From a virus (lineage: Duplodnaviria > Caudoviricetes): a stretch of 64,000 nucleotides of DNA. Numbering within the stretch: position 1 is the first letter of the stretch; every line of letters starts with the position of its first letter. Of this stretch, positions 4,052-58,424 are shown piece after piece. The notes below the pieces were generated by a model. It did not search any database and had not been told where the DNA came from. It worked only from the letters and a program-made list of their open reading frames with translations. Location: the IMG/VR virus record IMGVR_UViG_3300037067_007848, positions 57,009 through 121,008 of that record; one strand, given 5' to 3'. A program made the position numbers and the translations under genes.

Positions 4052-4488
4052 TTGACGGGCTAAATAATAGCCAATTAATCCACACTCTATTATTCAATCT
4101 TAATAAAATTGTTCAAACAAACCCTAATTATTCGCCCACTATATTTTACCAGTCTATTGGGCAGTGTCAAATGCCATCCATGGTGGCCAAAATGCACTAT
4201 TGCAATGCCTGGAATTATCCCCATACATTAATTGCGACTAACTTAAATACGGCATCAATATTATTAAATTGTATTAGGCCAAAAAAACGCCTATTTTATG
4301 TACATGACCCAGAATGGACATTTTTACATTGTCCACCATTTGATTTAGTAAACAATATTTATAACAATCCAAAAATCCAACTTATTGCACGTAGCAAACA
4401 CCACTTTAACCTTATAAAACGTGTTTGGAAAGAACCAATTGGTATTATTGAAAACTTTGATATAGAACAATTATTGGAATATATATAA
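4015..4488 (+). CDS. hypothetical protein resembling a GT-B N-terminal domain
   Basis: LIAT...TA...KKRLFYVHDPEW...LIARSKH resembles the N-terminal domain of WsaF-like GTs. Overlaps the upstream gene. Confidence 0.4.
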   Translation: MSTGGIKSFGVLIDGLNNSQLIHTLLFNLNKIVQTNPNYSPTIFYQSIGQCQMPSMVAKMHYCNAWNYPHTLIATNLNTASILLNCIRPKKRLFYVHDPEWTFLHCPPFDLVNNIYNNPKIQLIARSKHHFNLIKRVWKEPIGIIENFDIEQLLEYI

Positions 4489-52273: not shown

Positions 52274-53093
52274 CTTCTTCTTCGTCTCCTTGATTAATTG
52301 TATCTGTATTTAATAGAGGTCGATCTACCTCCCCATCCATAAATGTATGAAATTGTCCCAATTCTCTTGAAGCCTTTTCTTTTGCCCTCTTCATCAATTC
52401 AATATCAAATCCCTCTTTATCACGATTGGCCTCGTCTTCAAGCATTCTAATATAACCCGCAAATGTTGTTTGGGAGTTTTCTATACGCTTAACACGTTGA
52501 TCGCGGTTTGCCTTTAAGTCAGTCTGGACCGATTTAATTTTATCTAATAATTTGGTATATTCTGAGGCATATGAAGGAATGGCCGACTTTAATAAGGAAA
52601 GTCTTTGTTCAAGTGGAATAATTATGGTTTCGTCCCTGTCATCCTTATCGTATTCTATTTCTAACTGCCGCTTAACATCTTCCATTTCGACGGTCGCCGA
52701 CTGCCGTTCGGCCAAATTGCGATTCGCCAAAATGTCGAGCGTAATATATTGTTTAATTGTTAATTCTTCAGAATATAAAATATCTTCGCGGAATTGGATC
52801 AATAATTCGATCCACAAATTTTCAAAATATTTTAATTCATCTTCTGAGAATTGCTTTTGTATTTCGCCCCAATAATCTTTTGAATAAAGGACATTTTTCA
52901 AGGAAAATTTTTGTTTTTCCCGATCTGTCATTTCCACCGACACTAAATTATTTTCCTTGATAAATCGGACCACAATCCCAATTTTTCGCCTAAGAGCGTC
53001 GGCTATTTGTTGGGGCGACATAGTTTGTGCCCGCTGTTTGATAAAGTCCATTTCCTCAACGCCAAGCGGACCTTTTTTAATTGAATTATCCAT
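52266..53093 (-). CDS. terminase small subunit (candidate)
   Basis: N-terminal HTH (EEMDFIKQRAQTMSPQQIADALRR) and a coiled coil ending LKANRDQR. Upstream of TerL. Start at MDNS after a GGGG RBS. Confidence 0.5.
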   Translation of the reverse strand: MDNSIKKGPLGVEEMDFIKQRAQTMSPQQIADALRRKIGIVVRFIKENNLVSVEMTDREKQKFSLKNVLYSKDYWGEIQKQFSEDELKYFENLWIELLIQFREDILYSEELTIKQYITLDILANRNLAERQSATVEMEDVKRQLEIEYDKDDRDETIIIPLEQRLSLLKSAIPSYASEYTKLLDKIKSVQTDLKANRDQRVKRIENSQTTFAGYIRMLEDEANRDKEGFDIELMKRAKEKASRELGQFHTFMDGEVDRPLLNTDTINQGDEEEDG

Positions 53094-53727
53094 TTGTTTT
53101 TCCCCGCGAATTATCCCCAACTATTTCCTCAATAATTATTTTTAATTTATTTTTTTCACTTTTGGTCAAGAATGTTTCGTGTTTCATTTTTAGAAAAAGC
53201 CCCCTCATATTTTGCGGCACTTTATCCTCGACCTTTTGGAGTAAATCCTTAAAATCAATTTCCGCCTCTTTATTATCTTCTATAGTTAGGGCGTCATATT
53301 CATCTTCAGTTACCATACTTAAACTAATTGGGGCGGCAATACTTCGTTTTGCGTCATTTCGCTTTACCCACTTTGCATATACCTTACAATCGTCCGTATT
53401 GTCAAACTTATGGCATAATCGCTCGGCATTTACACAGAAGGAATGTTTACACGTATTGCACGGCGGGGATATTCGGCAAAACTTATCCCTCTTCATATTA
53501 ATTAGTCGATTGTGGGCATGGGTATAAAGGAAGGTAAATAAATTGTCCTCCCCATTATATTTTTTTATTGCCTCTAAAGAAAAGACGGCAATTTGCTGGC
53601 GAATATCATCTTCGTCAAAATATCCAAAACGAAATTTGCGTGATATTAAATGGGCTATCTTTGTTATAACTTCGACCAGATTATCATTAGATGTATTAAT
53701 CTTGTTGTTCGTTTTGCTGTTCGTCAT
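53086..53727 (-). CDS. phage sigma70-family factor (region 2 plus Cys cluster), probable late sigma
   Basis: DEDDIRQQ...EAIKKY...FTFLYTHAHNRLINMKRD is region 2, followed by a Cys cluster (C..CNTC..C..C..C). No obvious region-4 HTH. Confidence 0.7.
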   Translation of the reverse strand: MTNSKTNNKINTSNDNLVEVITKIAHLISRKFRFGYFDEDDIRQQIAVFSLEAIKKYNGEDNLFTFLYTHAHNRLINMKRDKFCRISPPCNTCKHSFCVNAERLCHKFDNTDDCKVYAKWVKRNDAKRSIAAPISLSMVTEDEYDALTIEDNKEAEIDFKDLLQKVEDKVPQNMRGLFLKMKHETFLTKSEKNKLKIIIEEIVGDNSRGKTNG

Positions 53728-53923
53728 TTTTTGGGTCTTCCAGGCCCATGTCCTCATTTACCATTTCCTTGACTTCCGTAGACGCCACGGCCACTAAAAT
53801 TGTAGGAACTTCAATTGATTCGTCTTTTTGTTCACTATTTTGTTCACTATTTTGTTCATCTTTGCATTTGCCACACCCGCGAAATATAGATCCACAATTA
53901 TTTGGTTTACAATTACATGTCAT
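53696..53923 (-). CDS. small Cys-rich / acidic protein
   Basis: CNC..C...CGKC followed by EQNS repeats. Confidence 0.4.
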   Translation of the reverse strand: MTCNCKPNNCGSIFRGCGKCKDEQNSEQNSEQKDESIEVPTILVAVASTEVKEMVNEDMGLEDPKNDEQQNEQQD

Positions 53924-54350: not shown

Positions 54351-54542
54351 CTATAAATGAAATTGTCCCCGCCCCCCCTTCTTTTTTATTCCAAGCCGGA
54401 CCCTCTCACGCCTAACGGCCACTAAGGTTGTCTGTCGGCCCTGGGAAACTAAAATCCGCGTAAGTTGTTCGTCGGTCATTTGGCCCGCGTATTTTTTAAT
54501 CGTGTTTTGTTCGTCCTCGGTCCATTTTGAATAATTCATCAT
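54351..54542 (-). CDS. small HTH protein, RpoN-domain-like
   Basis: WTEDE...MTDEQLTRILVSQG...AVRRERVRLGI. GGAG RBS. Confidence 0.6.
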   Translation of the reverse strand: MMNYSKWTEDEQNTIKKYAGQMTDEQLTRILVSQGRQTTLVAVRRERVRLGIKKKGGRGQFHL

Positions 54543-54653
54543 ATCTCCAGTTTTGTTTTATTTACTTAAACTTTCTACTTAAAATTCCAACATATAGATG
54601 TTCTACATAGATATACCCCAAGATCGCTTTATTAAATAGAAATAACCCAATAG

Positions 54654-54992
54654 ATGTCAACCTTATGGTAGGGAGTTGCTCTACGACCCCTACAATCCCA
54701 CAGAGGAATTTGTGTGAGGAATTTGTGTAGTGAATGTCAACCATTTTGGCAAATCTCCCCTCCTTTTTTAAAATACACCCACCTTTTTATTTAATAGAAA
54801 TAATCCTTAGAAATCACCTTTAGATTCCCTTATAGAGATTATTGCCATTAAATGTCAACCTTTGATTTATATCCCCTGGGTTTAATATTTGTCGAATTTA
54901 TAGATGTTAACAAAGAAATCCCCGAATACCGTTAAAAGAAAGAGAGGTAGATAAAGACACAACCTTTGTCGAGGTAGATAAAGATGTCAACC
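54654..54992. repeat. dispersed ATGTCAACC repeats (GGTTGACAT on the - strand)
   Basis: Exact copies at 54654, 54734, 54852 and 54984, variant at 54904. Also tandem GAGGAATTTGTGT x2 and GAGGTAGATAAAGA x2. Confidence 0.75.
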
Positions 54993-55075
54993 TTTGTTGG
55001 AATGGTCGGTGTGCGTTTGGACCACCCCGAGATTTTTTACGTGTTTTTTTTCGACTAGGGCAAAACAAATAAACA

Positions 55076-55117
55076 CCCCCACCCACCCCTGATCTTTGCC
55101 CACCCCCATCCCGCCCC
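55076..55117 (-). other. G-quadruplex-prone tract
   Basis: Seven C-runs of 3-5 nt on +, giving GGGGCGGGATGGGGGTGGG...GGGGTGGGTGGGGG on -. Confidence 0.55.
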
Positions 55118-55230
55118 ATATCATCCAATTCATTGCCGCCCACCTCCCGCCTATTGCTCGCCTGTCATGTAAGACCTATCGGGCAGTTTAACAAGGAAAA
55201 AAAGAAGGATAGATTGGATGGATTGTCCGA

Positions 55231-55455
55231 GTTTGGCACGACATTATCTTTCGAGATTTCACCAGTTTGGCACAAAACTATCTTCCCCATATTCGCCTGG
55301 TTTGGCACAACATTATATTGCCCGATTCCCCTTGCTTGGCATGGTATTATCCCAATGTATTTTCCCCAATTGGCACAGGATTATTCTACGGTTTTCCTAC
55401 TGAATGGCATAAGACTATCTTTACTCTTTATATTAGTTTGGCACAATATATGCAT
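55231..55455 (+). repeat. 7-unit, 34-bp-period array of TGGCAY boxes (sigma54 -24-like)
   Basis: TGG at 55234, 55268, 55303, 55337, 55371, 55405 and 55439. Confidence 0.9.
55438..55454 (+). promoter_or_regulatory. sigma54 -24/-12 promoter (candidate)
   Basis: TTGGCACAATATATGCA = GG-N10-GC. Confidence 0.65.
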
Positions 55456-55755
55456 ATATGTTAAGATGGGGGTTTTGTCAAATGGTATGTCAAATACCAA
55501 CAAAATAGGTGGAATATTCTTTTCCCTTTTAACCCGTCCTATGTTCATTCTAGTGCGTTTTCTTATTTTTTGACTATCTATTTCATGGGTGGGAAGGCGA
55601 GCGAACTAAACAAAAAACGACTATCAAAACAAGGCGATTTTGCATATTTTCGCCAACGATACCATTTCCTCTTTCTATCTACCTTCCTACCCAATACCCC
55701 AAAGGGGCTACCACCAATTATTTCCCCAATTCCATGATATTTGCCCGTATTCATC

Positions 55756-55784
55756 TTGACATTTTCCTTGTGATAGACGATACT
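55756..55784 (+). promoter_or_regulatory. sigma70-type early promoter
   Basis: TTGACA-17-GATACT. Confidence 0.6.
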
Positions 55785-55898
55785 ATATCTTAATGGGACA
55801 TGAAAACATACTTCGGATAGTGGTAGATCAAGCGAACGACTTGATCGAGCCGGCGGGCTGAAACGCATTAGGGTCCGGGCCACAAGCCCGCGAAAATC

Positions 55899-56120
55899 AT
55901 GGCTAATCACCAACACAGAGCAATCGAAAAACTGTCGCAAACTCACGGATTCACTCGCTGCCTTTGTGCCAGCGAAGGCGGACACATTACCGTGCATTGC
56001 GAGCCACGGGCACACGGCGGAGTGATGCACGTAGATGTTTGCCGCTGCGGTGCCGAGCGAAGAGTAAACACGAATGGCCAATTCCGCGAATCTGGTGGCT
56101 GGATTACCAATACTCGCTAG
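55899..56120 (+). CDS. small Cys/His-rich early protein
   Basis: First ORF after the early promoter. AHGG...CRCGA.R..N.NG. Confidence 0.6.
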   Translation: MANHQHRAIEKLSQTHGFTRCLCASEGGHITVHCEPRAHGGVMHVDVCRCGAERRVNTNGQFRESGGWITNTR

Positions 56121-56199
56121 ATAAGTGGTTGGAATTGGACGCGGCAAATCCACAAAATAGGTAGTTCACAACATTTCGTTTTTTTAAGGGAGTGATAAA

Positions 56200-56493
56200 A
56201 TGGTACAATTTACCCGCATTACCAAACGCCAAGCTATGGCCCGTTTCAATAAAGGATTACCGTTTTACCTTTGCCCATGCAAGCTACGCCCCGGCTGGCC
56301 GTGGAATTTCGCCATATTGATAGCAAACAGTGAGGACTATCGGGAAGACGCAAACAAATATCGGGACAATCCAACATTGTGGAAGGATAGCGTAGAACAA
56401 ACGGCCTGGGAGTTGCTTTACAACAATTGGGCGTATTACAATACCTCCTACGAAATGGGTTATTATGCCCATTATTATTACGTAGAGAACTAA
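56200..56493 (+). CDS. hypothetical early protein
   Basis: AAGGGAG RBS. C-terminal YYNTSYEMGYYAHYY. Confidence 0.7.
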   Translation: MVQFTRITKRQAMARFNKGLPFYLCPCKLRPGWPWNFAILIANSEDYREDANKYRDNPTLWKDSVEQTAWELLYNNWAYYNTSYEMGYYAHYYYVEN

Positions 56494-56565
56494 AACCATC
56501 ATTCAGCCCCTTTCGGGGGGTTGGGCTGGTTGTTTTGGACCCACTTTACAAGAGGAAATGTCAAA

Positions 56566-56880
56566 ATGAACAAATCGAGCCCGACGGCGATTGAGTCTTT
56601 TGAGTTGTTCGACCTTGGCTCCGACTATCCCGACTACTTTCAAGGATTTGGGGTATGCGGCACAGAATTCGACCACTGCGTTGTGGGTTGTGCCTCTACC
56701 CAGTCTGAGGCATTCGACGACCTGATGGAGCAATTTGCCCAATGCGAGGGAGTGACGTGCGGCATGACCGACTACGTTGAACGCAAGATCATCGCGGAAA
56801 ACGACAAACCTAACGAAATTCCCCTAATGGGGGATAAAATGTACTACTTGGGATTGCGTTTCAATTTGCCCACTAAGTGA
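56566..56880 (+). CDS. hypothetical acidic early protein
   Basis: GAGG RBS; start at MNKSS. Confidence 0.6.
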   Translation: MNKSSPTAIESFELFDLGSDYPDYFQGFGVCGTEFDHCVVGCASTQSEAFDDLMEQFAQCEGVTCGMTDYVERKIIAENDKPNEIPLMGDKMYYLGLRFNLPTK

Positions 56881-56908
56881 AAATTCAAGGGTGTGGGATA
56901 TATCCCAC

Positions 56909-56937
56909 TTGACAATTTACCAAAAAAAGACGATAAT
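56909..56937 (+). promoter_or_regulatory. sigma70-type early promoter
   Basis: TTGACA-17-GATAAT, directly after the palindrome GTGGGATATATCCCAC. Confidence 0.65.
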
Positions 56938-56944
56938 AGAGAGA

Positions 56945-57190
56945 ATGAACATGAACACAAACATCCCAACACGCGAAATCACCCTCAAAACCGCCAATCG
57001 CCAAATGATTCACGCCGTTTGTGCGATGATTTTTATCCCCCGCGAATTGCGAGCCGCCCTTGGCCGTCCCGTAGAATTTTCGGGTGGAATTCCCGTGCAA
57101 ACCCTTACCGACGAACAAGAGGCAGATCGTCAAAACAATCTGAGAACGTATATCGAGCGGGGTTATGCGTTTGACCCAAAGGCTGCATAG
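56945..57190 (+). CDS. hypothetical early protein
   Basis: ATG just downstream of promoter 56909. Confidence 0.5.
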   Translation: MNMNTNIPTREITLKTANRQMIHAVCAMIFIPRELRAALGRPVEFSGGIPVQTLTDEQEADRQNNLRTYIERGYAFDPKAA

Positions 57191-57297
57191 GGGATATCCC
57201 CCACCCCAGAAAATTTCCACTACTGCCCCTTATGAGGGGTAGACCTGGATGTTTTTACCACCACTTTTACGTTGTCCCCCTCTTTAGGAGAATTCCC

Positions 57298-58266
57298 ATG
57301 GCTGCAAACATCGACACCACCACTGGCAACAACGCCGTGGCATATTTTGGCGAAACGCCATGGCATGGCCTAGGACAGGTCATCCCCGAGCAGGATCGGT
57401 TTGACGCCGCTGCCTGTTCCAAAACATCATTTACCGATTTCGCCGTTGGTCTGCGGGAATTGTATACCCCAGATGGGTTACTTGTCCCGAACAAGGCTGT
57501 TGTGAGGGAAGATACGGGCGGTTTTCTCTCTGTGGTCGGCCCCAATTGGACCCCACTCCAAAACGAAAAACTGTTCGACTGGTTTCAGCCCTGGCTGGAT
57601 GCCCAACTTGCCTCGATTGAGTGTTGCGGGGCATTAGGAAATGGAGAGCGGGTTTGGTGCTTGGCCAAGGTAATTGGCGACCCCATTGACATCGTGGCAG
57701 GCGGCGACCCCGTTCAACAATACATTCTCCTCTCCAACAAGCACGGCATCGGGGCAGCCTATGCGGGATTCACCCCAATTCGGGTGGTGTGTCAGAATAC
57801 CCTTGAACAAGCCCAGCACTCCGCCGATTCCAAACTGATTAGGGTGTACCATTCGGCCAAGATCGAGCAAAATGTGGAAAAACTGAGGGGTGTAATGAAC
57901 GTCGCTAGGGCGGAATTTGAGGCAACGGCGGCCCAGTACAAGGATTTGGCAAGTCGACAATTCAATTCCACTGATTTGCAAAAATACATTCGTGTTTGTC
58001 TGGGGATGGAGGAGGATGGTGTGTTGCCAAAACGGTCGCAAACCCGCCTGCAAGAAATTATCTCACTTTGCATTAGTGGGAAGGGGCAGGACATCGACGG
58101 GGTTCGCGGAACGTGGTGGGGAGCGTACAACGGCGTGAACGAATACCTCAATTATGATGTTGGGCGACAGGCAGACACCCGCCTGGATTCCCTTTGGTTT
58201 GGACGGGGGAAGAAAATGAACGAATTGGCATTTAGGAAGGCTGTAGAATTCGCCACTGGGGTATAA
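57298..58266 (+). CDS. DUF932 / phage-plasmid-like protein (TIGR03299-type)
   Basis: AYFGETPWHGLG...PLQN...TPIRVVCQNTL...GTWWGAYNGVNEY...LDSLWFG. AGGAG RBS. Confidence 0.88.
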   Translation: MAANIDTTTGNNAVAYFGETPWHGLGQVIPEQDRFDAAACSKTSFTDFAVGLRELYTPDGLLVPNKAVVREDTGGFLSVVGPNWTPLQNEKLFDWFQPWLDAQLASIECCGALGNGERVWCLAKVIGDPIDIVAGGDPVQQYILLSNKHGIGAAYAGFTPIRVVCQNTLEQAQHSADSKLIRVYHSAKIEQNVEKLRGVMNVARAEFEATAAQYKDLASRQFNSTDLQKYIRVCLGMEEDGVLPKRSQTRLQEIISLCISGKGQDIDGVRGTWWGAYNGVNEYLNYDVGRQADTRLDSLWFGRGKKMNELAFRKAVEFATGV

Positions 58267-58424
58267 TGGGGACAACCCACACCCAAATAGAATTTCCAAC
58301 AACACCAAACAGATTAAAAGGTTAGATTGATAGGGAATTTGTAGAAAATTTCCACTTTGCCCACTACGGTGGGCGGGGCTGGACGTTTTTACGGGGATGT
58401 ATCCCCAAACCCCTTGTAAAGGAA

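Follow-up and report, generated by a model that had tools for sequence, protein, structure and literature searches.

A phased array of 34-bp direct repeats upstream of a predicted sigma70-type early promoter in an uncultured large phage

Regularly placed binding sites are known from several described systems. Class I activators bind at -61.5 or -71.5, and the sites of NtrC and Lrp lie about three helical turns apart. The R sites of lambda cosB and the pac hexamers of phage P1 are precedents for repeated terminase sites, and the origins of T4 and T7, together with lambda ori, are precedents for transcriptional activation or R-loop priming. Sigma54 promoters read TGGCAC-N5-TTGC. Moreover, iterons consist of 3-7 direct repeats of 17-22 bp, bound cooperatively and with helical phasing (PMC4980987).

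The locus and its repeat array

The DNA analyzed here, a window of 64 kb, is the right-hand part of a linear IMG/VR virus record of 121,008 bp that is ~80% complete, and belongs to an uncultured phage of about 150 kb. Rightward genes occupy the record from position 1 to ~63 kb and include NrdD with an intein, a DnaB-like helicase, a primase, a split DnaE, a UvsX-like recombinase and TnpB; a leftward late block follows, at the end of which a terminase-like ORF and a sigma70-family factor are found, and the genes run rightward again from approximately 55.9 kb of the window. The array is located in a ~1.4-kb non-coding gap in which the late (leftward) and early (rightward) blocks diverge, with the terminase-like ORF ~5 kb away in the late block, and the minimum of the cumulative GC skew falls at this divergence. 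Three tRNAs were the only Rfam matches in the window. As for the host, the taxa of homologues and the protein atlas entries gave only viral or mixed clues. In addition, positions 55750-58300 of the window have 50-55% G+C inside a genome of 37% G+C; a DUF932 protein (57232-58266) and small ORFs are encoded in this segment, which has the appearance of an island acquired at the start of the early block. The features of the region are collected in Table 1.

Table 1. Features of the control region and of the sequences compared with it (window coordinates unless another source is named).
Feature	Position	Strand	Description
Sigma70-family (ECF-like) factor of the phage	53086..53757	-	First gene of the leftward late block
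Mini-HTH protein A, 83 aa	54062..54313	+	Paralogue of B; 83% identical to the L016 orthologue; candidate binder
Mini-HTH protein B, 63 aa	54351..54542	-	82% identical to the L016 orthologue; candidate binder
Motif A cluster, (G/A)ATGTCAACCTTT	54653..54995	+	Copies at 54653, 54733, 54851 and 54983; degenerate copy at ~54956
Hairpin TGGTC...GACCA, then T runs	55003..55051	+	Sequence reading; partly conserved in L016; uncalled by the terminator scan
C-rich element	55068..55117	.	AATAAACACCCCCACCCACCC identical in L016; CCCCCACCCACCCC also in the distant L018
Array of six 34-bp direct-repeat units	55231..55437	+	Repeat alignment; core and period shared with L016
Array cores, TTTGGCAY-N3-AYTATC	~55232-55248, 55266-55282, 55301-55317, 55335-55351, 55369-55385, 55403-55419	+
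Promoter P1 (predicted)	55438..55467	+	-35 TTGGCA ("seventh box"), 18-nt spacer, TG, -10 TAAGAT
Conserved segment	55462..55512	+	From the P1 -10 into the transcript start; 69% identity to L016 over 51 nt, ungapped
Conserved block GACTATCAAAACAAGGCrATTTTrCAyATTTTCGCC	55619..55655	+	Non-coding, between P1 and P2; frame has stops in L016
Promoter P2 (predicted)	55756..55784	+	TTGACA-N17-GATACT; conserved in L016; upstream of the first early ORFs
Perfect TTGACA-N16-TATAAT sites	Genome 1564, 5937, 11604, 13309, 30073, 35736, 116856 (window 59848), 120180 (window 63172)	+
Marine direct-repeat pairs	L174 1043-1095, 1201-1591; L172 4277-4329, 4435-4499

Seven TGGCAY boxes had been described at this strand switch in a first-pass annotation, and that description holds: the boxes start at 55234, 55268, 55303, 55337, 55371, 55405 and 55439, with spacings of 34/35/34/34/34/34 bp, and the GG-N10-NN strings given for the seven were quoted correctly. 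The longest equally spaced TGGCAY chain thus has seven members, against a maximum of two in 200 shuffles of the genome, and equally spaced chains of at least four copies of one hexamer were limited, in the 121-kb record, to the array and one AT-rich case of four copies. Alignment of the units revealed that the conserved part exceeds the box, reading gTTTGGCAY-N3-AYTATC-tT, with a looser ATTyyCC block in the spacer; the TGGCAY and AYTATC blocks lie ~9-10 bp apart, centre to centre. When nine units were considered (six from the window and three from the relative L016, described below), the 15-nt core had a mean pairwise identity of 0.79 and the remaining 19 nt one of 0.40, with 0.27 expected for random sequence, and TGGCAY-N3-AYTAT was found to fit all nine. 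The seventh box has only TTTGGCAC in common with the six units, lacking the AYTATC half, and in L016 its counterpart (TTTGGCATgatctTTGCAcATGTTAAAATGGG) stands out of phase, 46 bp after the last unit; it is therefore considered a separate element and not a seventh unit. When up to one mismatch was allowed, five copies of the 16-nt core TTGGCACNNNATTATC were counted in the array and one elsewhere in the 121-kb record, inside a late gene; the core is thus a site of this locus, as opposed to a promoter or operator in general use.

Several other natures of the array were discarded. It is not coding, as a 34-bp period shifts the frame. RNA folding showed it to be less structured than shuffled sequences on both strands (z +1.9 and +3.2), which led us to reject a structured RNA or an RNA sponge. 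A series of sigma70 promoters was rejected as well, a -10-like hexamer being found at the right distance in unit 4 only, and so were promoters for the phage sigma factor, the array motif being absent from the late block.

A single close relative was found, the 5,487-bp metagenome contig L016, which was reached by a protein search with the sigma factor. Identity between the two phages is 71% for the sigma factor, 82-83% for mini-HTH proteins A and B and 50% for the first early protein. The proteins flanking the array are ~70-83% identical, and the surrounding non-coding DNA is strongly diverged. In the syntenic gap, on the reverse strand, L016 carries three units at a 34-bp period (TTTGGCACaaaATTATA, TTTGGCACaagACTATT and aTTGGCATgacATTATC), which align to window units 1-3. 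Copy number is then six in the window and three in L016, with the 34-bp period kept in both. It had been proposed that box and spacing are under selection, in agreement with what L016 shows, as TGGCAY-N3-AYTAT is retained there in 3/3 units at 34 bp with diverged spacers; likewise, the 34-bp TGGCAY array that was to be looked for in related phage contigs is present in L016, core and period both kept.

Wider searches were less productive. A distant DNA search of the phage collection with the region returned nothing, and a scan of IMG/VR viral contigs for the array pattern gave one match, a chance one inside a gene. From 241 million metagenome records the same kind of scan yielded 118 matches, which were satellites or chance except for L061, the same contig as L016. 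The conserved non-coding blocks gave nothing in a scan of viral contigs, and one match in genome contigs, in a high-GC Desulfobacca MAG, was dismissed as chance (n = 1). Moreover, the distant relatives L009, L010, L011 and L018 have no comparable array. Based on the L016 comparison and on the pattern scans, core and period are conserved, copy number is variable and the lineage is rare. Separately, a 34-bp element, tagaatcgtgccTGGCACCAAATTATGCA, dispersed and locally tandem, came up during the pattern scan in the LFRM01 metagenome contigs L054, L097, L107, L108 and L119, and is unrelated to the phage.

Promoter P1 and the terminal box

Immediately after the array, the terminal box opens a sequence that reads as a sigma70-type promoter in both phages, with a -35 close to TTGACA, a spacer in the range of 16-18 nt and a TAnnnT -10 that has a TG upstream: TTGGCA-18-TG-n-TAAGAT in the window and TTGGCA-16-TG-n-TAAAAT in L016, with the -10 and the TG conserved across a 2-bp indel. 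P1 is thus expected to be a good extended -10 promoter of the sigma70 type, with a predicted start at ~55474, and P2 lies 318 bp downstream of it. In addition, eight perfect TTGACA-N16-TATAAT sites were identified on the plus strand, which is the coding strand of the rightward early block, when ~0.04 would be expected by chance; the host polymerase therefore clearly uses canonical sigma70 promoters.

This bears on the central proposal of the first-pass annotation, according to which six crippled sigma54-type sites precede an intact one. Read in the sigma54 frame, units 1-6 have TC, TC, TA, TC, TT and TC at -12, never GC, and match the consensus chiefly via TTGGCA; GC at -12 was found in 0 of the nine array units of the two phages. 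The terminal box, held to be the intact site, does carry GG-N10-GC in both phages (TGGCACaatatATGCA and, in L016, TGGCATgatctTTGCA), and that of the window (55440-55453) matches 12/14 positions of the consensus. Only one further site in the record combines both dinucleotides with 12/14 matches; no site reaches 13/14 or more, and no other strong sigma54-like site was detected in the record. Still, the same bases are equally, and more economically, read as the -35 TTGGCA of the extended -10 sigma70-type promoter of both phages. Moreover, neither a sigma54 activator of the AAA+ enhancer-binding type (PF00158) nor the sigma54 DNA-binding domain (PF04552) is encoded in the 121-kb, ~80% complete record. 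Most simply, the terminal box would resemble sigma54 sites only because TTGGCA differs from TTGACA by one mismatch. This would represent a caution for scans of sequence alone, as TTGGCA -35 hexamers can mimic sigma54 -24 boxes.

Neighboring proteins and non-coding elements

No genes of the locus are better conserved than those of mini-HTH proteins A and B (82-83%). The two proteins belong to a family with 60 representatives at E ≤1e-3 among 1.84 billion proteins, whose members have 60-100 aa and the consensus WT..E..FIR.NA...KD..LA..L....GR..SL.AVRK.R..LGI.K..GRG; P0012 and P0013 are members listed with A and B. The family is undescribed and without a Pfam model, 43 of its members having no match in a Pfam search with E up to 1. 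It recurs beside phage sigma-factor genes, which suggests a role in transcription control, and some of its proteins have 5-6 tandem copies of the domain; in L178 (6067-9242), for instance, a 413-aa protein with the domain in five copies is encoded after two sigma-like genes. Furthermore, in marine contigs with a member of the family, pairs of direct repeats 38-40 bp apart (AAAGTGGACATTTAG; CAAATTTAATAAATTATTTCTAAAT) were observed in the adjacent ~1 kb of non-coding DNA.

The model of protein A, with a pLDDT of ~90 over residues 10-50, is a three-helix helix-turn-helix, and we are confident in predicting that A and B have this DNA-binding fold. In a fold search the best match to A was the DNA-binding domain of GcrA (5YIU; Z 6.2, rmsd 1.7 over 47 residues), with Aquifex sigmaN on DNA (5UI5) at rank 24 (Z 5.0) amid many generic helix-turn-helix folds, and Foldseek found no match to the model in the PDB at E ≤0.001. 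When the family profile was compared with PDB sequences, the top match was the RpoN domain 2AHQ, at a weak E of 0.14; in an hhalign comparison with 31 RpoN domains from bacterial genomes, the probability was 27.7% (P 6e-4), and, over the RpoN box ARRTVAKYR, the K and R of AKYR as well as LGI were aligned, the RR being replaced. The idea that a phage protein reuses the specificity of the RpoN box is weakly backed by these comparisons, in which RpoN is the best PDB match at an E of 0.14, the hhalign probability is 27.7% and the RR is not conserved; a link of the family to the -24-reading domain is possible. A further step, in which proteins of this type, derived from RpoN or GcrA or convergent with them, would read TGGCAY, so that the phage would have a private array of -24-like sites, independent of sigma54 itself, for switching its first early promoter or for titrating a host factor, appears to us quite unlikely.

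Motif A occurs between the mini-HTH genes and the array, its copies sharing a single orientation at irregular spacing, and L016 has five copies in the same place on the reverse strand. The other strand of the motif contains TTGACA, with no -10 at the right distance. Motif A may be what the mini-HTH proteins actually recognize. Between the motif A cluster and the array, the hairpin listed in Table 1 resembles a terminator; a hairpin with T or A runs precedes the C-rich element in each of three phages. This element (AAACACCCCCACCCACCCC) is conserved in the window phage, L016 and L018 (position ~4192-4209 of the latter), whose sigma factors are only 35-71% identical. Its minus strand has nine runs of at least three G within ~75 nt, and could form a G-quadruplex.

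Downstream of the array, in the segment 55462..55512, the window and L016 differ chiefly at second codon positions of the one frame that is open, a pattern that is not coding-like; a small ORF at ATGTTAAGATGG was rejected because its differences from L016 are mostly at codon position 2. Just past P1, at 55476-55493, the window has two copies of a direct repeat, TGTCAAAT, 12 bp apart, which are not conserved in L016. A leftward TTGACA-17-TATATG, overlapping this repeat, and a TGTCAA dyad were discarded, as they are not conserved in L016 either.

Readings of the array and comparison with known systems

We give an even chance to the array being a set of phased direct repeats that serve, in the manner of iterons or operators, as sites for a sequence-specific DNA-binding protein of the phage, which would likely control P1, with mini-HTH proteins A and B, encoded nearby, as the most plausible binders. 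A protein-binding array accommodates all the data; the adjacency of array and promoter, their register and the transcription-linked neighboring genes favor control of P1. The TGGCA of the proximal unit and the point where the P1 -10 begins are separated by 57 bp in the window and by 67 bp in L016, a difference of exactly 10 bp: L016 has a box-to-box gap longer by 12 bp and a spacer shorter by 2 bp, which together make one helical turn. This is one comparison, of two genomes, in which agreement within 1 bp of a whole turn would arise by chance in ~3 in 10 cases. The centre of the proximal site is then at ~-63 (window) and ~-73 (L016) from the predicted P1 start, near classical positions for a face-dependent activator. 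Within a unit, the TGGCAY and AYTATC blocks would be presented in successive major grooves on one face of the DNA, which would suit a two-domain or dimeric binder; the bound protein would most likely activate P1 or shut it off, depending on the helix face, and the untranslated region of the P1 transcript may also serve in the initiation of replication. Direct occlusion of the -35 by such a protein is uncertain, as the terminal box lacks the AYTATC half. Other observations go against this reading: a period of 34 bp corresponds to 3.24 turns, so that successive sites leave one face unless the DNA is wrapped; motif A, being nearer to the mini-HTH genes, could be the site that their products actually bind; and L018 keeps the C-rich element without a TGGCA array.

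The iteron-type repeats for a phage protein that had been offered as a fallback agree with these data. Taken further, the array would be the iteron set of a phage origin, on whose six repeats an initiator oligomerizes, with the untranslated P1 transcript providing transcriptional activation or an R-loop primer, and this we hold to be unlikely while granting it appreciable weight. The repeats do match the iteron form of 3-7 direct repeats of 17-22 bp (PMC4980987), with six units (three in L016), a 17-19-bp core and the 34-bp period; they are confined to one locus, at the divergence of the transcription blocks where the cumulative GC skew has its minimum, P1 precedes a conserved non-coding stretch of ~300 nt, and the phage has a DnaB-like helicase, a primase, DnaE and a UvsX-like recombinase with no recognized initiator. 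However, the skew minimum coincides with the strand switch and is not independent evidence, the replication genes are more than 60 kb away on the record, and no DnaA box was found at up to one mismatch in 54500-56300. The flanking AT-rich stretch reaches only 75% AT over 40-50 bp, compared with 63% genome-wide, and the neighboring ORFs have no Rep-like or initiator-like match in Pfam or PHROG, searches that initiators outside the known families would escape. The C-rich element raises another alternative, a packaging recognition region of the cosB or pac kind, in which the repeats would be bound by the small terminase or by an accessory protein, and cleavage or recognition would take place at the C-rich element, 150 bp away. 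No other non-coding sequence of the region is as conserved as this element, kept even in L018 with a sigma factor 35% identical, and the region lies upstream of the late block with its terminase-like ORF; yet the contigs of both phages read through the region without an end, the C-rich element separates the array from the terminase genes, leaving the array on the far side, and L018 has the element without the array, so the chance that we allow this alternative is slim.

The landing pad of the first-pass annotation, in which six -24-only sites, ending in a real sigma54 promoter (55440-55453), would either retain or titrate the sigma54 holoenzyme of the host or work as an enhancer, is not supported, and we consider it very unlikely. 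The GG-N10-GC kept in the terminal site of both phages, the rarity of such sites in the record, the RpoN domain as best, non-significant, PDB match of the mini-HTH family and the one-to-one hhalign P of 6e-4 speak for it. Set against these are the array units without GC at -12, the absence of any site of 13/14 or of an activator or sigma54 domain, the good extended -10 sigma70-type promoter that the terminal bases make in a phage that plainly uses sigma70 promoters, the low hhalign probability with the RR of the RpoN box replaced, and a fold search in which GcrA came first and the RpoN domain at rank 24; moreover, the conserved AYTATC half has no counterpart in sigma54 recognition. A last alternative is that the P1 -35 region was duplicated in tandem and that the copies, functionless in themselves, are decaying. 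The boxes do look like the -35 hexamer of P1, and copy number differs between the two phages, but core identity (0.79) is well above that of the spacers (0.40), the AYTATC half is missing from P1, and both period and core are kept in L016 despite strongly diverged non-coding surroundings; such a duplication is credited with very little probability.

If the array is indeed a set of phased protein-binding sites at P1, the locus would constitute a compact, well delimited cis-regulatory module of an uncultured large-phage lineage, in which the phased repeats and a promoter are accompanied by the conserved C-rich element and by two small DNA-binding proteins whose family, linked to phage sigma factors, is undescribed. 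It would offer an experimental handle on the control of the first early promoter, or on the start of replication, in such phages.

The array fits best into a known class, that of phased direct-repeat protein-binding arrays, to which it would add a new member, placed before an ordinary early promoter of the sigma70 type. With the iterons of RK2, F, P1, R6K and pPS10, and with lambda ori, it shares asymmetric direct repeats, a conserved core, variable spacers of fixed length and confinement to one locus, but its period is 34 bp instead of ~22 bp, and it lacks the adjacent Rep/WH1-WH2 initiator gene, the DnaA boxes and the clear AT-rich unwinding element of iteron origins. Upstream activator and operator arrays are similar in the position of the proximal site (~-63 and ~-73, one turn apart) and in a spacing of about three turns; the array differs from them in that its sites are asymmetric direct repeats, not palindromes, and are present in six copies. 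Its features in common with sigma54 promoters are TGGCAY, which no unit lacks, and GG-N10-GC, seen at the terminal site in both phages, whereas the units have TC, TA or TT at -12 and the terminal site overlaps an extended -10 sigma70-type promoter. Finally, the mini-HTH proteins resemble the GcrA DNA-binding domain (5YIU) and the RpoN domain (2AHQ, 5UI5) in their three-helix helix-turn-helix and in a recognition helix of the form ...V-x-K-x-R/H-x-x-L-G-I/L, but stand alone, with neither sigma-interacting nor core-binding parts, and do not conserve the arginines of the RpoN box.
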